From: Vermamoeba vermiformis
Taxonomy: Eukaryota
NCBI GenBank assembly: GCA_045837725.1
Contig: JBEWZL010000076.1
Location: 248,001 to 312,000, forward strand
Reading direction: 5' to 3'
Length of the DNA: 64,000 bases
Part shown: in pieces, positions 1,292 through 33,000 of the stretch
How the letters are laid out: each line of letters begins with the position of its first letter
How positions within the stretch are numbered: position 1 is the stretch's first letter
Program-made: the position numbers and the translations under genes
Notes under the pieces: model-generated
The model's input: the letters and a program-made list of their open reading frames with translations, nothing else
Databases searched by the model: none
What the model was told of the DNA's origin: nothing

Positions 1292-3095
<1,804 letters not shown>

Positions 3096-3179
3096 GCTTA
3101 ACTCTTCAGGTTAAATAAGCCTCAGGGAGCATGTAAATAAATAACCTTTTAATTCGATTTTTAGCATCTCTGAGTTTTT

Positions 3180-3860
3180 CCCAGGAATTCTTGACAGGGT
3201 CAGCGTTGGCATGTTCTGAATCAAGTACACGGCTTAAGCAACAACTGAGATTCTTCTTGCAGTTGTTCGAGAACGGCGACAATACCAGCATCAGAGGCTT
3301 CAGCATCAGCGTAGAGAGAACTCGATTTGTTGGTCGTTCAATTTCTTCAGCAGAAGATTGTTGTCCTTGTATAATTCGCGCAGAGTTGACGTAGACTTGA
3401 TTGAATAGCCACACTATTAACGAAAGTTGTTGAAATCAGGGAAACGAAGGATTGACTTGGTGGCCAGTCCGTTCTTGAGGAGTTGAAAGGCAGGATCTTA
3501 AGCTTCGTACCAAACGTTGCTTTCTTTGAACTGAGTGTGGTTCTGCAATCGTAGCAAAATCAGCGACGGAAGGACGATAATAACCAATGAGACCAAGGAA
3601 ACTCTTTAACTCTCCTTTGTGTTGAGGGACGGGCCAATTGAGGATAGCATTGACTTTGTCGGGATTCGGACTGCAACATTGTGACGAGATGATGTGTTCA
3701 AGGAAGGGGATTTCGTTGAGAGAAGCATTTTTCGGCTGATAGTTTGACTTTCGCTTCACGGAGGTGGTCAAAGACAGTAGTGAGGTTCTTGATGTGTTCT
3801 TCGAGTGTTTTATCGAGAATATAGTGGCGAGTACGGTATTCCTCTAAAATCGATGCAAAA
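3180..3860 (-). mobile_element. Decayed Ty3/gypsy LTR-retrotransposon pol fragment (RT C-terminus plus RNase H start)
   Basis: Frameshifted pieces TLEEHIKNLTTVFDHLREAKVKLSAEKCF, IPFLEHIIS..PNPDKVNAILNWPVPQHKGELKSFLGLIGYYR..FATIAEP, and RNaseH-like LYADAEASDAGIVAVLEQ near 3260-3320. No LTRs seen. Confidence 0.85.
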
Positions 3861-3991
3861 GCGATCCGTTCTTCTTGACAAGATGAATCGCAGCAGCCCA
3901 TGATTCAGATGGTTCGAATACGTTGCTCATTAATTGCTGAGGTGTGCGGCGTAGCTTCTCTTGGACTAGCTGTGCTTTGGCTGCCATTGAC

Positions 3992-6235
<2,244 letters not shown>

Positions 6236-8636: not shown

Positions 8637-10675
8637 TGTCCGCGGGAAAATTTACCCGGTACCGGGAAATTTCATTACGATCAAAAAATTGGCCACGAAC
8701 TACAATTAAACAAATCAATAGTGTCTTTATTATTACTATGACGTACCATAGTATACATAAAAACAATTGGACCTTGTATCGCCACTCCTGTAATAAAATA
8801 AAATTAATAAATTTATCCGTTAAAAATTGCCGAGACAATATTTTGCATTTGAGAATGTCTCTAACAAGAAAGTACACTCACGTACATACGGACCATATTC
8901 GATTGGTCCTCAAGACAAAGGCTGGTGCTCAAGTAAAGTGGCCTGATGAAGTTAAAGGGCCAGAAAATGAAGGGCATCGGCGGCAGATTAGAAACGCTGC
9001 TAAAAATCACCTAATTAGAGATGGGAAGCTACTACATAAAATAACTTTCACTAAGACAATCACTGCACGAAGCATTGATGGTAAAATCGAAAATTTGTAC
9101 CAGATCGAGACTAAAAATAACTACTTACCAGATGAAGGGTGGAGGGAAGTTCCTCATGAGTCCAAGCGGCAGGCTATCCTCGAAAAATTGCCTGGGCCAA
9201 GTGCTTTCCGACTCAAGAGGTGGAGCCGATCGCGCGTTACATCTTCGAACTCTTCTTGAATGAGCTTCAGTTCCCTGAAATACTACAGTCAGATAATGGC
9301 AAATCTTTTTTGGCTAAAATAATGAAGGACTTACTTGCACTGTTTGGAACGAAGCAAAAAAATTCAAGACCGCGCCATCCAAAGACAAATGGCCAAATTG
9401 AGCGATTCAACGGGACCCTGAAGCGAAAAATTAGAGAACACCTCAAAAAAGAACCAAAGGCACCTTGGGCTCATCTGGTGCCGATTGTGATTGCTGAATA
9501 TAACAACACTTACCACAGTACTATTGGTCGCAAGCCTGTTGAAGTCTTTCGCCCGTGCAACATCAATAGCAATGTTGAAGGTATTGTATTCGAACCTATA
9601 TCACCATCAATTAGCTCCACAGAAATTTTACTGACCAGATCGTACCTTAGCGGATCTCGAAGCACAGAAAGCCTTCGCTGAGAAGCTGTTTGCCCAAACT
9701 CGAGAGAGAAATAAGAAAAAGGCCAACGCAACGATTAGACGCCACGAGGCCAAGTACAAGCTACGTGTGTATGTACCTGGTGAGATCGTGTTAGTGGATG
9801 TGGGTAAAAAGACAAAAGTGAAGCAGAAGAGAGACATGGTCAAGGCAATCGTTGTCGAAGCACTTACCAATAACTACTACACAATCGAGTTTGCTGCTGG
9901 GCCAAAGATAGGCGAACAGGAGGACATTAACGGAGATCTGGTCGAACCTCTGCAGAAAAAAACCCAAGTGATGAGCGACCAAGTGCCAGAGAGAAAAGAG
10001 CAGAAGAAGAAGGGTCGAAACGGGAAAAAAATCAACAAGGAGGTCGTTGTTGTGTCGCCAAGGCCGAAATCTGTGCCTGATCAGCAGCATCCTGAAAAAA
10101 AACGGTCAGAGTCGCACTGGTTCAAACAAACTGAAAAAATACTTACCATGGAGCGAGGCAATCGTGGGGCGCGAGCTAAAATATACACTAAACATCAGGG
10201 TTAATGAAGGCGGCAATTGACTACATTGAATATTCAAATCTGAATTTAAAATAATATTTCAGGAATTTAATATCGTGCATTTGCCACACGTATGTACTTA
10301 CATAGCAAATAAATACTAATAAATAATATTCAAATTTTTCTATGGAAGATCTTTGTTTGTGTCCTAAATCCATGCTTCGCTCAACAGTACGGCAAGGAGA
10401 TAACAAAATAACATTGCCTTATTTTGTATTAGGCAATGCAATGGCCGTGATGTGGTCGTCATCGTTAAATAAAGCTATTGAATAAACCGTAAATTTTTAG
10501 CGGATGTGTTTATCAACTTTATTTCTTACCCTGGTAGATTTGGTTACGATCAACCTTGCGCAACGAACAACCCTTTAGTATACTCATTATCAACCAAAGA
10601 ACAAGCTTAGCAGAGGTAGTTCAGGTACAAATTTTTTATATTTTTTAAATGTCCCGGTAATTTTTAGCGCGGACA
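8637..10675 (+). mobile_element. Ginger2/TDD-like DNA transposon (retroviral-type integrase), internally deleted
   Basis: Termini TGTCCGCG..CGCGGACA with imperfect ~29-bp TIRs (8637-8672, 10647-10675). TTTATT is duplicated at 8631-8636 and 10676-10681. Encodes an rve integrase core. Confidence 0.88.
8855..10204 (+). pseudogene. DDE integrase/transposase of the TIR element, frameshifted near 9190
   Basis: FPEILQSDNGKSF, SRPRHPKTNGQIERFNGTLKRKI, EYNNTYHSTIGRKPVEVF and YVPGEIVLV. In-frame GT-AG intron at 9581-9650. The H2C2 finger and first catalytic Asp are not found. Confidence 0.85.
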
Positions 10676-15938: not shown

Positions 15939-17996
15939 TTATTTATCGTAGAATTGGATGTGAGACAATATCAGCACCTTTGTATTATGCTTCTTGATCG
16001 ACACGACTTGTTTGGTGTGTTTGTTGTAACAAAGCACTTGCGACACTTCGCGCTGATTGTGAAGATCAAGCACGTGACTGTCACTCACATCGACCACTTT
16101 AATACCTTTGGGATCGAGACTGATCAGGTATTCGTCGAACACTAAAGGATTTTCACCTAACGGCACCCACAGGGGCTCTTTCGTTTCTGAAATAACAAAG
16201 AATTAGGTCATAAAGGAGAAATATAATTCTATATTTTTGATATTGCGTACCATTAGTAGTGTTGTTTTCATCGGGCGAAGTAATGGTTACTGAACGAACG
16301 ACAGGCAAGCCATGATTGTCCATACTGCTCGTTGAATCGCCCCAAATAGCGATAGTATTGTTATCTAGCCAGCACATTGGATAGTCCCAGTCATAGCCTT
16401 CGGTAATTCTTTTTCCTTTCTGTTCACGTTACAAAAATTAATTCTGCGAATTTGGTGGACTTATTTTTTTTGTGATTACCTCCATGGCGTAAAGATTAGG
16501 CTCAGTGCCTTGCATCCAGTCTTCAATAGAGAAATTCAAACACGTTCCAATAGGATGCCAGACCCATCCGAAAGTACAAAGATTTTTCTGATCCGGCGAT
16601 ACGTACAACTTGCACCAGAAAAACTCCAAATGATGGTTTGTTACTACAAATATTCATTAGAATTCTAAAGCATTGCGTCATTCAAAAAATTACATACGAT
16701 CTCGTTCTCTCAAACTTTCGCCGGTCTCGGGATCGTACAGATCGACCTTGTTCCAGGCTTTACCAGCGATCAAATATTCTTTGTTCTCGTACGTAAAGAA
16801 CGCCACGGGGAATGAACAGTGAGAGACTTGATAGGCGCCTCGCTATTAGGAAAAAGAAGTTAGGTCAAGATCCAAACCAAAGTCGACAAAAATAGTAATG
16901 GTGAATTGTACTTACTAAAAGTTCAAATGAAGTTGCTTTAGTCTCCAAATTAAAAACGAATCCTTGCGTTCCTTTCTCAGCATAAGCAGCGACGAACTTT
17001 CCATCGTTCGAGACTTGCAATGCATCGCCAGTACATTCAGCCAAATCCTCTTGTTCCACTTTATCGCCGTCAATTTTTAACAGCACTAATTTGTTTACTG
17101 GCTGAGATTCTATTTAGAACAAAAAATTAGCTTTTGCCAAAAGCGGAAAGTGACTCCTGGTCACAAGAGATCAAAATTGAAATTTTAATGCTTAATATAC
17201 TGCCTATATACTTACTAGTGATAGCGACAAGGTTGCGGCTATTAGGAATCGGTTTAGCGACCAAGATCTCTTCAGGAAGTTCGAGTTCTTTGTGGATCCA
17301 AATTCCGTTGCCCCATTTTCGCTTAGATTCCGGCGAGCCTCTTCTATGCGTAAAATCAACGCTGTTTTTGAGTGCTTCATGGCATTCCTTGCAAATTAAC
17401 GGAAATTGCAAGTACTCTTTTGTTGGGATCTTCTCGTGACAGTTGCACTGGTCCAATTTAATAATAAATTCGTACTTATTTCCCGTGTAGTATAATGCGT
17501 GCTCGTTGGCGGTGCTTAAGTCGATAGGAAGCAAACAAGGGCAAACTCGGACGGCAGTGTTACCATCTGCTTCTGGATGAGGACATTTAATTGCTAAAAT
17601 ATGAAATTAGATATGCGTACAATATATTATAAATATACCAATTAATTTGAAGTAAAATAACGGTCGATGCAGAAAAAATCAATTTAATGTTGAAATAAAA
17701 AATTCGCTCTTTCTTTTTTACGCACGTTGCTTACTTTTAAATGAGGCCAAGGTATCGAAGAATTTTTTAAAATAATCTGTGGTATCACTAATATCAACAA
17801 ACGGCAGTTCATTTTGAAGGACTGATTTCCAAAGGCTGTTCTTCGTGAATAATGCTCTCCAAGCCTTATTAACCTTGCATATTGATAGGCTTTGTAGATC
17901 ATCCCACGTCAATTTTGGAAATACTTCTTTGAACAGAATATCTTCGATCTCGTTGGGCAGATGCGACCACGGATTTGTTTCCTCGTTCTTTTCCAT
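15939..17996 (-). CDS. F-box protein family copy C
   Basis: MEKNEETNPWSHLPNEIEDILF..ICKVNKAWRAL; same exon structure and motifs as copy B. Confidence 0.8.
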
Positions 17997-18336
17997 CGTG
18001 TTCTTCGTTCTTGTCAGATTTATCGATTGAAAGTAAATAAAATCCAACCATATTTATAGCAATTCTGGTCACAAGTGACTCATCATCGTAAAATGACAAG
18101 AACCAAGAACGAGATAAAAGTGACATGTTACTTTGAACTCTCAACGAACGCTTGCCGAAATCTAGCAACAGACTTGTCGTTATATTTAGTGATGTTAATT
18201 GAACGCTGCAAGATTTAACGTAGCAAAATTATGGCCGAAAGATGTACATCCGGTAGCAAACAGGTCAATGAATTGTATTTTGAGTGTGAACGATTTTATT
18301 ATTATAGGAACGATAGATAGATAATATTACTCATGA

Positions 18337-20759
18337 TTACTCGACAAAAGTAACGGTGTCAATGCGTCCAACGGCTTGGATGCGTTGTTGTGCGACGAAC
18401 AAGATCGCTTCAACCGGGTTCTTTTTGTTGACGCTCTTTTGGGCCTTGTTTTGCTTCATTCCAAACATGTACATCGGATCTATTGGCACGCACAAAACTA
18501 GCGCGGAATCACCTGAAAAATTCATAGTTAGTAAGGGTTAGGGATTAAATTTTCATGAAAAAAAACTAACCTTGAGACATGGAGGTACGAGTAACTTGAT
18601 TTTTAGACTTGTCACGGATTTCAATAATTTTCTCGATTTTGATCGATAAATAACCGCAAAGGTAAACCGCTTTGTAGACACGACCTTCACGCATGACACC
18701 AGTCTTTGCTGTCGGCTACAGAAACGACTCGTTAGTTACTCAGTTAAGGAATAAGATGTAATAATGTATATCTATAAACTCTATATAAACTTCTCGGTAT
18801 TGAAGATCCGGATGTGGATCAAGCGGACTGTCAGAGAGACACTTACGAGAGCGAGTGCTGCCACAAAAGATTTGACTTGTTTAGGCGCACGATCTTTTTC
18901 TACGAGCAACACGCCAAAGTGGCTCAATCGCTGGATCTGGTAATAGGTATTTGCGACCTTGTACATTTCAGAGTACTTCCCCATAGGAATTTTGTTGAAT
19001 TCAATGCCGATAATGTCCCACGGATTCGCTTCTTTAATCTCTTTGTTCTTGGTCTCAATGCGCTTTACTTTCAGCTCCACACTGTCGTTAAATGCTGGCG
19101 ACATCAATTTCAATGTCATTCCTGGCTTCAATCGGCCACCTACACGCACGCAAAAATTAAAATCAATGCAAATAAATTAAATATTTAGTAAATAGTACTA
19201 ATCTCAAAATAAGCGTATTTTAATATATAAAGTATGAATTTCTATAGTTAATAACAATACGTACTAGTGACAATGCCCGTGTGAATGCCAAACGTTCCCT
19301 TGTTCTGTTGAAACACGCGGCACAACGGCATCACGAACGGCATTGGAACGCGTTCGTCGTTGTACTCGAGCTTCTCCCAAATTGAGTGCACTGCACGGAA
19401 CAACGTAGGTCCATTATACCTATAAAATCTTTTTAGCACCTGCTCACTTTTGACGAGTCCATTGTTTGATTGATGCTTTGGATCCGGCTTGGAAACACGT
19501 ACCAAGCGTTGTATGCCTCGACACCAGTATGCGGTGAATAGATGTTGTATCCAGACAAGGCATTGATGGGAATCAACTTAATGTTCGGCAACAGCTTGTC
19601 GGGCACTGATTTGACCAGCTTGGTGCCAATCAATTTTTTGTCTTCCTCGAACGCTACAGATCAAAGATTAGGCTTTTAATAAATGAAACATGCATATAAA
19701 ATAGATGAAGATTTGATACTAGAAACGTTTTTTTGCTTTGCGGCACAAAAACGTCGGATGCAGATCTAAATTTACAATTTCCTTATGGCAAGTAGATCCA
19801 TCTATCTATTTGTAATTTTACTTACTAGCTTGAGTGAACTCAGAAGGCGTGTAATTGATGGCAATAATGAAGTGCGAGTGCGTCAATGACGTCAACACTG
19901 CAGTAACTCCGTTCACGAGCCACTCGAACTTGGCATCTTGCGACTTGGAAAACATGAGGATAGCCGTATTTACCTATTTAAGTAACAATGAATAATTGTG
20001 TTCGCATAGAACAGTACAAAATCTTTTTGATCTGAAAAACCATTGCGTAAGTGATGAATTGCGTCAAAAATATCAGTAGTCAATAGGCGGAAATATAATC
20101 ATAATGATAGAGTCGTACCGTGCTGCAAATTCGATAAGCTGAGAGCAAGCGGCGGCTGCATCCAGGGGTGTCCAAGAAGGTCAAGCTGTGAATGTTGGTA
20201 GTTACGTAGAGCGAATGAATATGTGGTGTATGAGTTCTATGTCCATAATCGTTATTAATGAAGTTGTTGTAGTGGAGGTTGGGCGGCAACTCCGGATGTT
20301 TCTTTACAAAGTTTTGGAATTTGTGTTCGATGTTTTCTTTGTTAGATTGTAGCAATAAATGAGCTAGCGCGGTAGATTTTCCTAAAAATAAACGTTATAT
20401 TAATTGTAGATTATTTTGAATCGAATTTAAAAACTAATCTGCCAGTGAGACTTTGTACACTAACAAATCGTTCTGATAAATTTCTCAAAAATTACGATCA
20501 AGGCAATTAATATTATTAAATACTTACCGACATCAGGAGAACCAATTACAGCGATATTTAAATTTTTGCCCATCCACGAAACGTGGTGGTTAAAATAATC
20601 GAGCATAACGCTTTGGAAGTGCTTCGACAATGTGCCAATAAGTCCAATATATCGAGATGCCTTCAAATACTCGAAAATTTGGTACCACATTTCTAACGGC
20701 AGGTATTGCCAGAGAGTCTCTGGTGAAGGAACCATTACTTCCAAGCCATTTTTCTCCAT
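18337..20759 (-). CDS. F-box fused to a degenerate EF1A/eRF3/HBS1-like translational GTPase (domains I-III)
   Basis: F-box LWQYLPLEMWYQIFEYL..LSKHF; LNIAVIGSPDVGKST; FLDTPG; LIPINALSGYNI; GPTLFRAV; PFVMPLCRVF..GRLKPGM; GDSALVLCVPIDPM..QAVGRI. Confidence 0.8.
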
Positions 20760-20913
20760 TTTTATAAAATAGTACTGCTACTAAACCGCTAGTGATGAGT
20801 ACTAATAAACTAAAAAGACCAGCTGAGCGCTAAATTTATCTCCAGCGGAATCTCGCAGCGGCTGTTCGGTCAACATTTAGTCAACGCACGTCTAGAGTAC
20901 TTAAAAATGAGTT

Positions 20914-22766
20914 TTATTCGCGTTTTTTAGGCTCGTATTGCTTCTTTCCTTTCTTCTTTGGCGGTTTATTGTCTTTCTCTTCGTTGCCAAAAGTCTTATG
21001 AATGTTGGGCTTAGGACTGGATGCTGTTTTCGGACCAAAGTTGTAAGAACCAGCCTCTCGAGGAGCTTGAGCGTTGTTATTATTTTCTATTGATATATTT
21101 CCATTAGTCTATATACAATAAATACTAATATCGGATCACGTACTGAATTTGTCCTCTTTGTTCTTAACCGCAGCTGCTTCTAACAACAACTGTCGTCCAA
21201 GGCAATCAACGCGGTTCATTTGTAAAGCATTTGATAATCCAGAAGGATCAGCGAAGTCGACAAAGCCAAATCTATCAAAAATACTTAGATCCAGTACACG
21301 TACCACTCTTGCAAGTCTACGCGCTTATTAAGCTCGTTTATAATATGGCGTAACATAAAAGGGTATATCGCGGGAATTTAGTACGTACCCAGTTGGTTTT
21401 CCAGTGTCAGGGAATGTCGGCAAGCGAACAGTCGCGATCTCACCACATTCGCCAAAAATCTCTCGTAAGTGCAACTCTGTTGTTTTGAAGCTCAAATTCT
21501 TAACGAATAGACTGTTTGATGAAACAGGGCCTTAAAAAGAGAAAGAGCGTCAGCTAAGACCTTCCACACGATTTTTCAAAACTGGGCGAGATCGGATGGA
21601 TGTACTACTTGAACTTGTAAGAACTAACTAACGTACCCTTATTGCCACCACTATTGTTCTTGTTGCTTGCTGGTGCGTTCTTATCTCCAGCAAATCGTAG
21701 CTTAATCTTTCGGCCTAAGAAGGTCTGTCCTTGTTTCTTGAGACCTTTCTTCGCACCTTCCATAGTCTTAAATTCCAAGAAAACTACTTGCGAGTCGCGG
21801 ATTTGACCTTGCGTCAGGAATCGAACATCACTAAATAGAGATACAAGTTAGAACATCCGCGAACAAAAAATTTAGTATTTTGTAAGCGGACAAACGTCGT
21901 CTAAAATAGGATATTATGGATTATGAGTAGCGGCAAAATTTCAGGTTTACTTACTTGATCTTGCCGCAGTCCTTGAAATAATCGATAATTTTAGTTTTGT
22001 TGGCTTCTAACGAGACATTTCCCATCCATAATGTCTTTTGTTCTTTGGTATAAGCATTTTCTACGATAATATTAGTATTATTAGCAAAACCACGCCAATC
22101 AAACCCAATAGAAATCCGATCGTAACACTTACCGTCTTCGTGTTCAGCCTCTGGCTCTTCCTCTTCCTCAATTTTACTGTTTTTTCCTTTTTTGGGAGCA
22201 TCGTTATATTCAAATTCTTCACGATCGTCGTCTCCGATGGAAACTTGATCATCCGAATCCACGTCGATCTCATCCAAGTTCAAATCGTCCAGATTATCAA
22301 CATCTTCATCGCCTACTACGGGAACGCCAGAAAGAATGTTGCGAATTTCGTTGCGCAACTGTTCAACTGATACTTTCTTCGGGTCGCCTGCTCGATCAGA
22401 TTAGCTCGCCGTGACCCGCAATGAATTTTTATTTTTTATAGCCAATATGATCTTTGTATTATTGATTTTCATAAGGAGACTATTAGAGATGCTAATATAA
22501 TTTTTGAATTAATTTTAAAATTGCGATCGGATCGCGTTACCTGATCCAGTCTTCTGTTTCTTGTTTTTCGTATTTAAATCTTCACCACTATTTTTTCTTT
22601 TCTTATTATTCGTGTTTTGGTTCTGATCTGCTTTCCTCTTCGCCTCTCTTTCTTTCGCTTTCTCAGCCTTGCGTTTTTCTTTCTCTTCTTGTTTCTTCTC
22701 AGCGATTTTATCTTTTTTCTTTTGCACGCTCTTCTCGAATAACGAGCCGAATAGATCGTCAGACAT
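20914..22766 (-). CDS. Nucleolar-type RNA-binding protein with two RRMs (NOP12/RBM34 or nucleolin-like)
   Basis: Lys/Glu-rich and acidic N-terminus. RRM1 TLWMGNVS..YFKDCGKI..VVFLEF. RRM2 SLFVKNLSFKTTELHLREIFGECGEIATVRLP..GFGFVDF. Confidence 0.8.
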
Positions 22767-30044: not shown

Positions 30045-33000
30045 TTATTTTTTCTTTTCCCCTTTTTTGAGCTCTTGTTGGGCCTCAGCTTTAAGTTTTT
30101 CTAATTTAGCTTCAAATCTAATCAATTCTTCTTGCGTGGCTCTCAATTCAGCGTCTAAATGGTGCATGCGCAGTTTGACACCAGTCGCGGGATAACTAAT
30201 GGATCCCAAATCCACCAATTGTTTTTGAATTTCCGCCGCATCTTTTTTGCACTTTTCAACTTCACCTTCAATAATAAATCGTTCAACGCCCTTGGAGAAC
30301 GACGGATCTTTTTCAACCACGTCCTTGAACACTGCCAAGTACAACGGCGAGTACGGCGTTACCTAATAAGGCAAAATTAGCATCAATGTCAGGCTTACAT
30401 TTGCCGAAAATAGAAAAGCTCGAGATGGGATCCGCAAAAAAATACGCAAAACATTATTATGCGTCATGGTGAGTGAAATTTGGGTAGGATAATCCAAAAA
30501 TAGAAATATTTCCTAATATGGAAATTGTGTCCTGGGTACTTACAGCTTTCTTCTCGCCGACTTTGTTGAAACTGATCAAATGTTTCTCGGCCAATGCCTT
30601 CAACGCGCCTTCATTGCCCTCAAACACAGTGAACAAGAGTTCATCGTAGGGAACAAATCCACGCTCAACCAACAACTGCATGGTGGCCCAAAGTTGTTTG
30701 TGGCTCCATGGATTCGTGGATGTGCCTGGTGCAAACTTGCTGCCAAAGCCTTTAGAGCGAATTTCTTTCTTGGCCTCGTCTTTGAGTAACTTTAACGCGC
30801 CTGTTACAATTGCAAAAAATTAATTTCTCGTTCATGAACGGCAGGTTCAGTGAACGTAAAAAAAAACTTACGATCAACTGGCACGCCACGAGTAGCCAAA
30901 CTAATGAACTAAAATAAAGTTAGCAATGTATTAGGTATACTATATTTAGTACTATTAATAGAAGTTAGCTTACGCGTTCTAGATCCGCCAAACGGCCGCC
31001 CAACAAATCAATAATTTGATCCAATTTTTTATCATCGACTGGATCAGGCACTAAAAATAGATCATTAAAAAACATTTCCTTATTTGGTAATAGTTTTTGA
31101 TCCTGACGTACCGACTAATTTGGACAAATCTTCTTTCAAATTTGGCACCACCACGGCCGCGTGATGCACTGCCGCGTCATTGGTAGCTTTAATTGCCACG
31201 TGCATCGAATTTGCAGATGCAAATTTAGCTTCGTCGTCGGTGATCGGCAACACTTCGCCCACTTGTTCTTCATTTGCAGCTTCTTTCGGCTCCACGTACG
31301 AGATGGGCATGAACGCATCGACTTCATCGCTGTTGTCCTGTTCTTGAATGGCCGTGTTGTTGTTTTTGAAATTCAACCACTTGTCGAGCAGCGATTGGTT
31401 CGTGGCTTCAAGTTGTTTTTTCTTTTCAATCACGCTTTCACGGTACGCGTTCATTTGTTCGCGCAAATAGGTCTTCACTTCGTCTTTGGCCACGTCTGTC
31501 ATTTGCACTGTAATCAGCGCTGTTCTGAGAGCCTCGGCTAAAATTTCAAAATTAGATCCGCAAAATTAAAAACACTCGTAATTTTAGGTGTCGTGAAAAA
31601 AATTTTGCAGCGATAAATTAATGCAAAGATACATTTGTTATTTTTGAGCAATCAAAAATATATTCATGAATTATGTTACGTACTGTTTCTGAGCGTGGAT
31701 TCAGTCTGCGGGCTATCACCGACATAAACGACCTGAGCGACACCCCAATTGGTGACTGACCGAGACCAGTTTGACAACACGCGCATGATGGCGTGTGCTC
31801 TGTTGTATTCGTCCTTGTTCTCGGGCTACGGGGAAAAATATTAAAAAAACCGATCTAACACGAACCATTGACAAAAAAATGTGAAATTTCATATCTGTTT
31901 TGGTTAGTGTTATTGTGGCTAAATTACCTTATTTAGAATTTGAGCAAATTTGTCAAAGTCGTCGAAGATGATCCACGCGGGTTCATTCGCTTGTTGTGCA
32001 CGCACGCGCAACACTTTGTTGAGCACTTCCATCATGGCTTTGAACTGCGCTTCTTGTGGCGGCGTGACTGCTCATCAATGACGTCATTAGTAATTCCGTG
32101 GTTCAATATTTATAACGGAATTTCCTTTTATGGAAAGTGATTTTCGTTCAAATTGATCGATAATAAAATATATATGATTGCTGTTAATATGGCATTCGTA
32201 ATATCCTGTGGTTCAGTAATATTTATAACGGAATTTCCTTTTATGGAAAAGATTGTTCGTAAAAAAGTATAAATTATTATCAGCATGAAGTACGTACAGC
32301 TAGAATTGGGCAAGAAACCAGTGAACCAGACGAGCAGCGTGTTGAGTGCGTTGAAGGAAGGTCTGAAGCCAATGGCTTTGATCACTGCGTCCATGAAGTC
32401 GGCTGTTGTTTCCACGTCACCGCACGCGATGCGCACTGAGAACATACGACTAACGGACAATAATAAGATAAGTATCGTAGTACATAGCACAATATATATT
32501 CATTAATATTACTATTCTCATATTGAGATTTAAGTAAAAAAACATTTTGTATTTGTTAATATTACGATAGCTTTGACTGATTGTGTTGATACATATATAA
32601 GTATCGTACAAAATTATATATTATCCAATAGTATAATCATACAAATTTCATTAAGTAGACGAGATCCGGATCAGATTTTTTCGGGAAAAGTTAATTTCAA
32701 CTTGTAATGAATACTCAAACTTATTAATAATATTAAGACTATGTTATGCAACGACGTACCCTCTGCTAACTTTTTTCAACAGCGTCGATTTGTTAGTGCC
32801 CTTAGGACCCATGAACAAGATGACCCCTTGCGGTTTCTGTCTTAACATGTCCCGCAAATCTTTTTCTTTTTCAGTCTCGTTGCGCCAAATAAAGCTCGAT
32901 TGTCGCTCGCGATAATAAACTTCCACTTGTTGCTCGACGGTCAACTTTTGAAACACGAACCAGTAGCGCATTGGATTGATCAGCAGAATCGATGCCAGCA

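Follow-up and report, generated by a model that had tools for sequence, protein, structure and literature searches.

Proteins of the EF1A family recognize the state of the ribosomal A site; the targets of ubiquitination by Skp1-Cul1-F-box (SCF) ligases are chosen by F-box proteins, usually through receptor domains such as leucine-rich repeats (LRR), WD40, kelch, and the like. Here, we describe a gene that appears to join the two. It lies at positions 18337..20759, on the minus strand, of a 64,000-nucleotide stretch of Vermamoeba vermiformis DNA (GenBank assembly GCA_045837725.1, contig JBEWZL010000076.1, positions 248,001 to 312,000; the whole stretch is called “the window” below), and its product runs from an F-box-like N-terminus into a complete EF1A-like body in which several nucleotide motifs have degenerated. 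The best explanation of the whole is a lineage-restricted, expressed SCF adaptor with a hydrolysis-dead EF1A-like body as its recognition module, and we judge the chances of this explanation to be about even.

The closest described systems are EF1A itself, eRF3, Hbs1, and Ski7. A survey of translational GTPases (PMC4342817) names, in its main text, 57 subfamilies, with EF-Tu, aEF1A, eEF1A, EFL, Hbs1, Ski7, eRF3, CysN, and GTPBPs in the EF1 family; “F-box” and “ubiquitin” are absent from that main text, although its supplementary subfamily tables could list such proteins. Passages of PMC4509514 describe how the catalytic histidine of these GTPases positions the catalytic water, and state that Ski7 has Ser at this position and still binds GTP. 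The Ski7 N-terminus binds the exosome and the Ski complex (passages of PMC4509514; abstract of PMC4933942). Full-text literature searches returned no paper that describes the fusion of an F-box to a GTPase of the EF1A type; the passages of one paper listed there, PMC8409312, are unrelated. The original prediction, made from the sequence alone, did not know this architecture as a described family, and the searches agree; it is not, however, unique to the lineage, as the distant proteins P0027 and P0056 share it.

Compared with eEF1A/aEF1A, eRF3, and Hbs1, the window protein has the same fold over all three domains but lacks the catalytic His and the NKxD motif and carries an F-box-like N-terminus. 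An N-terminus that recruits partners ahead of an EF1A-like body is the layout of eRF3, Hbs1, and Ski7, and the window protein resembles them in this. The likeness to Ski7 extends to a three-domain body of the EF1A family whose catalytic His is gone, replaced by Ser in Ski7 and by Cys or Trp here, and which, in the window protein, is modeled in a GTP-like closed conformation. The two differ in that Ski7, with its guanine-binding motifs intact, binds GTP (passages of PMC4509514), whereas NKxD is lost here, and in that the N-terminus binds the exosome and Ski complex in Ski7, whereas that of the window protein looks like an F-box. With F-box proteins such as Skp2 and Cdc4 it shares an N-terminal pattern of 40 residues, LP..E..I..L...SK.F, followed by a separate globular domain; unlike theirs, its C-terminal domain is a translational-GTPase fold. 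P0027, its relative P0168, and P0056 likewise have an F-box and then an EF1A-like body, and in P0027 and P0056 the F-box is valid by Pfam. The protein may work most like Ski7, with an F-box replacing the exosome-binding N-terminus, and is not a bona fide EF1A.

The coding sequence (CDS) comprises 1563 nucleotides, encoding 520 amino acids, and is interrupted by seven introns of 58-172 nucleotides, all seven (7/7) bounded by GT..AG. Translation starts at the ATG at 20759-20757, the first in its open frame, and ends at the TAA at 18339-18337 (minus strand). The features are as follows.

18337..20759, minus strand: whole CDS of the F-box-like plus EF1A-like gene, 8 exons, 520 amino acids, stop included
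20528..20759, minus strand: exon 1, beginning with Met1 and ending on the first base of codon 78 (Gly78); residues 1-77 plus one base
20583..20711, minus strand: F-box-like segment, residues 17-59 (LPLEMW..IFEYL..LSKHF), placed by sub-threshold Pfam matches, hhalign, model helices, and conservation
20382..20527, minus strand: intron 1 (146 nucleotides, GTAAGT..TAG), phase 1, within the P-loop Gly78 codon
20119..20381, minus strand: exon 2, with the remaining KST of the P-loop at 20379-20371
20244-20221, minus strand: switch-I remnant GHRTHTPH in exon 2, from alignment to EF1A-like proteins
20172-20158, minus strand: DTPG plus Cys152 in exon 2, from the same alignment to EF1A-like proteins
19826..19973, minus strand: exon 3, with NYTP replacing NKxD at 19856-19845
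19503..19653, minus strand: exon 4, end of the G domain, with the G5-like NAL
19265..19419, minus strand: exon 5, linker and start of domain 2
18847..19139, minus strand: exon 6, domain 2 beta-barrel with a helical insert near residues 378-388 (GTP_EFTU_D2 E 0.015)
18571..18715, minus strand: exon 7, first part of domain 3
18337..18512, minus strand: exon 8, end of domain 3 and TAA, with a low-confidence model loop at residues 483-492

Exon 1 holds the F-box-like segment, the first strand of the G domain (NLNIAVIG), and half of the P-loop. Because the F-box-like segment and this first strand are contiguous on a single exon, the fusion requires no splice. The end of exon 1, marked by read-through after ..VG, recurs in fragments P0011, P0017, and P0037 and in locus L001, and this recurrence, together with the contiguity in the DNA, rules out a merger of two genes. 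The start MEKNG or MEENA is common to every relative. The original prediction had placed the ends of the CDS exactly at 18337..20759, where the model of eight GT..AG exons also puts them, and its splice from about 20529 to about 20382 lies within one base of the junction from 20528 to 20381.

The fullest sign of expression comes from run X6, in which a contig of 1577 nucleotides covers 20776..18352 in eight pieces and skips all seven introns. Four of its joints fall exactly at CT..AC, that is, GT..AG on the minus strand, and three are blurred by 1-3 unmatched letters; intron 1 is skipped from 20382 to 20530 (147 skipped, with one letter between the two sides). One gene and one transcript had been predicted, with two separate genes named as the outcome that would speak against the fusion; the contig joins all eight exons at the predicted sites and, with the shared exon 1, contradicts that outcome. 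Thirty of the 32 listed differences between the window and the contig, which belongs to a close relative, are synonymous, as against 21% expected under random change, and the other two are conservative (S to T, L to I). The JGI protein P0001, also of 520 amino acids, aligns to the spliced product without a gap at 79% identity (410/520). Five intron-free open reading frames (ORFs) of 520 amino acids in the P0001 cluster lie on contigs of 1600-4827 nucleotides, and fragments P0004, P0008-10, P0015-17, and P0022 stop or read into junk exactly at the ends of window exons; we infer that spliced transcripts gave rise to the full-length ORFs of this cluster, and genomic DNA to the fragments. The gene is real, conserved, and transcribed as one message, and the degenerate state of its motifs is conserved under purifying selection.

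Residues 64-520 make up the full three-domain fold of the EF1A/eRF3/Hbs1 type, a G domain followed by two beta-barrels. Searched exon by exon, the window gives weak Pfam matches (GTP_EFTU E 0.2 in exon 2, 11.7 bits; D2 E 0.015), whereas P0001 passes the GTP_EFTU cut-off of 26.5 with 38.7 bits. For GTP_EFTU_D2 (cut-off 30.3), P0002 passes with 32.5 bits and P0001, with 18.1, stays below. A phmmer search of the PDB with P0001 finds aEF1A (6e-13), eEF1A (1e-12), eRF3 (3e-12), and Hbs1 (4e-10), all within three orders of magnitude. It shows no particular kinship with Ski7: the matches listed, up to E 1, do not include it, and Hbs1 is weaker than aEF1A. The AlphaFold2 model, built from a 115-row alignment, has a predicted local distance difference test score (pLDDT) of 83.9 and a predicted template modeling score (pTM) of 0.83. 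Its target-normalized Foldseek template modeling (TM) scores are 0.79-0.84 to GTP-state aEF1A, ribosome-bound eEF1A, eRF3, and Hbs1l, but only 0.42-0.47 to GDP-state EF1A structures. The original prediction of a complete three-domain EF1A-like fold is borne out by the phmmer alignment of P0001 residues 66-478 to yeast eEF1A (1f60) and by the Foldseek TM of 0.80 to GTP-bound aEF1A over about 480 columns.

The body is, nevertheless, not that of an ordinary elongation factor. Identity to EF1A structures is 20-22%. Although the best-matching profile is EF-1_alpha, the 540.1-bit cut-off of the NCBIfam equivalog TIGR00483 is not reached by P0001 (87.3 bits) or P0002 (100.6 bits), and the database name “translation elongation factor EF-1alpha” is therefore an over-annotation. 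Only 312 of 1.84 billion library proteins are found at E 0.001, and 17 at 1e-10, which marks the EF1A-like body as far diverged; the stem branch of the family measures 1.41 changes per site.

The Asp of NKxD is the residue that reads the guanine base. When the spliced product is aligned to 110 EF1A-like proteins, the G1 P-loop GSPDVGKST is kept, with Asp76 at the consensus position, and so is DTPG, as the original prediction had it. After DTPG comes Cys152, at a position for which the 110 other rows have a consensus His; NYTP stands in for NKxD (residues 205-208) and NAL is the G5 sequence, and here too the alignment agrees with the Cys and NYTP of the earlier reading. The claim that the RGITI effector motif has become HRTHTP holds in part: the switch-I stretch is rewritten, but Thr129 aligns with the conserved switch-I Thr, and this one residue may have been kept. 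The residue after DTPG is Cys in the window, P0001, P0018, and L001 and Trp in P0002, and the NKxD position reads NYKP, NYTR, or NYNR in relatives. All close relatives (P0001, P0002, P0018, P0023, P0022, P0030, P0102, and L001) combine Cys or Trp after DTPG with NY.. in place of NK.D. As every close relative seen is in the same state, the motif losses are old and have been maintained; as the His and NKxD are gone in every family member seen, “pseudo-GTPase,” the term already used in the original prediction, is a fair one. To the extent that sequence comparison can tell, it is well founded for the EF1A-like body.

The case for the F-box (Pfam PF00646 / PF12937) is made at the level of the family. 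Pfam F-box-like scores stay below the threshold in P0001 (14.1 bits), P0002 (15.6), and P0037 (22.3, E 1e-4), with E values of 0.014-0.042 for the window protein, P0001, and P0002. An exhaustive HMMER search, however, found two distant, full-length proteins whose alignments extend through the N-terminus and which are valid on both sides of the fusion: P0027 (F-box-like 31.4 bits, cut-off 24.3; GTP_EFTU 92 bits) and P0056 (F-box 25.1 bits, cut-off 20.5; GTP_EFTU 48.7 bits). An hhalign profile of five close-family N-termini, built without these two, aligns to their F-boxes over residues 19-50 with a probability of 89.5, a P of 2e-6, and a score of 31.5. None of 100 column shuffles reaches that score (mean 9.3, maximum 18.9). 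With P0027 and P0056 included, profile A1 matches the Skp2 F-box 1fs1 in the PDB at E 1.1e-5, and all eight of its best matches (8/8) are Skp2 or Cdc4. As both proteins are part of the family N-terminal hidden Markov model (HMM), their matches to it arise by construction; among 164 proteins it had no other match below E 1.

Conservation points the same way. The positions that are invariant in the family (L20, P21, E23, W25, I28, F29, L32, L40, L44, S45, K46, and F48) are the ones matched to the F-box core in the alignments with Skp2 and P0027, and no segment of the protein is better conserved than residues 17-58, which are 90% identical to P0001 and 57% to P0002. The values are 81% and 55% for the G domain and 88% and 45% for domain 3, while domain 2 evolves fastest (62% and 29%). 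In the full-length AlphaFold2 model, helices of F-box-like lengths are placed, with modest confidence, at 22-31, 34-41, and 46-59 (pLDDT 55-76). The original prediction of an N-terminal F-box running directly into EF1A is thus right about the direct fusion, on the shared exon 1; the F-box is not recognized by its own Pfam score, and it is the family profiles that support it. The same holds for failure against F-box profiles, part of what was named in advance as grounds for abandoning the idea: the window protein does fail the Pfam cut-off, but homology to valid F-boxes is found at the profile level. We consider the N-terminus quite probably a divergent F-box.

The relatives all come from environmental or transcriptome sources. 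P0001 is 79% identical to the window protein; P0002 (530 amino acids) has 48% identity to P0001, and the exon fragments P0018, P0019, and P0020 have 64%, 67%, and 58%. Loci L001/L002, which have fewer introns, are about 50% identical to P0002 and 45% to the window protein; P0037 and P0072 follow at 44% and 38%. P0027/P0168 and P0056 are far more distant; segment by segment, they share 12-24% of their residues with the window protein. Judging by DTPGH/DSPGH and NKCD/NKMD, which are intact in P0027 and its truncated relative P0168, these two may be active GTPases. The C-terminus of P0027, encoded on a contig of 2163 nucleotides, is a stretch of Glu and Lys; its Lys part may be a translated poly(A) tail, in which case the contig would be a transcript.

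The family sits on a long, unplaced branch in the trees. In a 115-row tree calculated without the N-terminal columns, the five F-box rows fall inside a 13-row group with a Shimodaira-Hasegawa-like approximate likelihood ratio (SH-aLRT) support of 98, whose other members are divergent EF1A-like proteins, most without the catalytic His. This clade was not recovered in a 40-row tree made up of the 13-row group and 27 hand-chosen others and, as it dissolves there, we do not rely on it. When the five F-box rows are held as a clade in the 40-row tree, the result lies 7.83 log-likelihood units above the free tree, with a p value in the approximately unbiased test (p-AU) of 0.68. One origin of the F-box/EF1A fusion is not rejected; long branches could give the same result, and the grouping is unsafe. 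If the origin was single, then the fusion preceded the loss of the motifs, as P0027 and P0168 keep them.

Searches for further members gave little. A metagenome scan with P0001 confirmed none of 15 pattern matches (0/15), and a scan with P0002 yielded the two loci L001/L002. A search with profile A4, over the 8000 candidates sharing most words, returned seven proteins; because it missed the known members P0001, P0002, and P0056, it says little about the range of the family. Viral contig scans with P0027 and P0056 found no relative, so that no link to viruses is claimed. Along the way, further EF1A-like proteins of very high divergence came to light, most of them without His after DxPG (P0051, P0064, P0137, P0103, P0126, P0053, P0133, and P0145), several of them as uninterrupted ORFs on contigs of 160-950 kilobases. 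Look-alikes in the Atlas are EF-Tu-like clusters with scores of at most 0.84, several of which are commonest in Nucleocytoviricota; these are leads only.

Several observations weigh against an expressed SCF adaptor with a locked body. Exon 1 of the window fails Pfam, with 15.0 bits for F-box-like (E 0.022, cut-off 24.3), and a PRANC match on the same exon (E 0.012) is also below its cut-off. Profile A2, made from the four closest N-termini only, matches nothing significantly in the PDB, its top match being the Cdc4 F-box at E 1. Modeled alone, the N-terminus becomes two long helices (pLDDT 72.7), for which Foldseek finds no match in the PDB and VIA gives a best Z of 5.1, all of its matches being generic helical hairpins. 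The P-loop and DTPG are intact, so that some nucleotide-dependent switching is possible. As for expression, run X6 carries a different organism label and is only guessed to be RNA. The three RNA runs that do carry the label of the best DNA match's organism (X20-X22, of which about 46-48% of each was read) gave 27, 37, and 40 reads; none is at least 99% identical to the window, and 26, 32, and 37 of them lie only partly on the gene. Within 18100-20950, reads of 95-99% identity are confined to short conserved stretches, such as 20218-20274 and 18992-19035, beyond which they are unlike the window; by eye, their loose ends continue as the coding sequence of a diverged homolog. It looks as if a homolog is transcribed in these samples, either a paralog or the ortholog of a divergent strain, and the exact window copy is not seen among the reads.

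In the explanation that we prefer, the EF1A-like body would no longer cycle as a GTPase but would be fixed in a single conformation and serve for recognition. As ligand, it would take what members of this family bind: the ribosomal A site together with the GTPase center, a tRNA-shaped partner (eRF1 or Pelota), or aminoacyl-tRNA. The F-box would dock the protein on Skp1-Cul1, and the bound ligand or a neighboring protein would then be ubiquitinated. A function as an SCF receptor is a reasonable reading of the domain order. The main competitor keeps the body and discards the ligase: the N-terminal helices would be merely F-box-like and bind some other partner, as in an adaptor of the Ski7/Hbs1 type, and the body would act on the ribosome or a tRNA mimic in mRNA or ribosome surveillance. 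The sub-threshold F-box score of the window and the close-family profile that is not significant against the PDB both fit this. So does the repeated rebuilding of the N-termini of Hbs1, Ski7, and eRF3 in eukaryotes (main text of PMC4342817), as does the catalytic His, likewise gone in Ski7 (passages of PMC4509514). Yet it is the invariant N-terminal positions that match the F-box core in Skp2 and P0027, and the distant P0027 and P0056, with the same architecture, pass the Pfam F-box cut-offs. We regard such an adaptor as fairly unlikely. Rather less probable is an SCF receptor regulated by nucleotide, in which the body would bind a nucleotide, possibly without specificity for guanine, and so gate substrate binding. 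It would account for the retained P-loop, P-loop Asp, DTPG, and Thr aligned to the switch-I Thr; P0027 and P0168 show all motifs intact on the same architecture, and Ski7 binds GTP though its His is gone (passages of PMC4509514). It has to contend with the loss of both the Lys and the Asp of NKxD in all close relatives and with the absence of any canonical catalytic residue.

The remaining explanations fare worse. The original prediction had suggested a decoy, an EF1A look-alike that baits pathogen or viral proteins targeting EF1A so that they are degraded. That domain 2 is the fastest-evolving part (62%/29% identity, vs. 81-90%/45-57% elsewhere) would fit a contested surface, but this is weak evidence; at only 20-22% identity to real EF1A and with a stem of 1.41 changes per site, the protein would be a poor mimic of the host factor, and no pathogen link was found. 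We think a decoy very improbable. Least credible is a decaying paralog or an annotation artefact, that is, two merged genes or a pseudogene. The missing catalytic motifs and the lack of reads at least 99% identical in three RNA runs could be taken that way; against them stand a frame intact over eight exons, 30/32 synonymous differences, a spliced contig that spans the gene, full-length orthologs (79% and 48% identity) that agree in length and in the state of their motifs, and the contiguity of the F-box-like segment and G-domain strand 1 in exon 1. An artefact of this kind seems to us barely conceivable.

The DNA of the window is of an ordinary nuclear kind (39.6% GC). Other genes in the window encode old-yellow-enzyme-type reductases, Sir2, PP2A-B56, Sec24, an AAA ATPase, glutathione S-transferase (GST), and RRM proteins, along with an integrase remnant. 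No paralog and no second N-terminus of this kind is found among the 955 ORFs of the window (0 further matches below E 0.1). The next ORF downstream, 17721-18053 (minus strand), perhaps continuing to 17130-17606 (minus strand), starts MEKN.. and has a weak F-box-like match (PF12937, E 0.0016, 18.6 bits, below the cut-off); it shows no specific likeness to the N-terminus of the F-box/EF1A-like gene (E 0.42), and two putative F-box genes may stand side by side. Upstream on the same strand, 21136-21531 and 20914-21108 (both minus) encode an RRM protein (RRM_1 E 1.5e-8) with a Lys-rich tail, and this gene ends about 150 nucleotides before the start of the F-box/EF1A-like gene. Farther away, neighboring copies of an NADH:flavin oxidoreductase (Oxidored_FMN) at 1426-2417 and 4514-5171 (both plus strand) match the same profile positions and are probably a tandem duplication. 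The ORF at 9160-9678 (plus strand) has an integrase core domain (rve_3 E 1.7e-7) and is probably a retroelement remnant, and 30460-30819 (minus strand) matches the RNA12 protein family (PF10443, E 2.7e-7), which is mainly fungal.

Taken further, the SCF-adaptor explanation leads to a broader idea, which we hold only tentatively and think on the improbable side: that these proteins form an unrecognized family of SCF receptors built from a translational GTPase, with GTP-competent members (P0027 and P0168) and locked ones descending from one ancient fusion. The body would enter the A site and GTPase center, or grasp eRF1, Pelota, or aminoacyl-tRNA, and so deliver Skp1-Cul1 to stalled or aberrant translation complexes. 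If true, an F-box joined to an EF1A body would link the recognition of the state of the ribosome directly to cullin-type ubiquitination; to our knowledge, ribosome quality-control ligases such as ZNF598/Hel2 and RNF14/RNF25 do not work that way. Sources now label these proteins “EF-1alpha,” wrongly. The window protein would join Ski7 as another, independent example of an EF1A-like body that is retained as a non-hydrolyzing scaffold. With intact motifs in P0027 and degenerate ones in its relatives, the family would allow the passage from translational GTPase to pseudo-enzyme to be followed by natural comparison.

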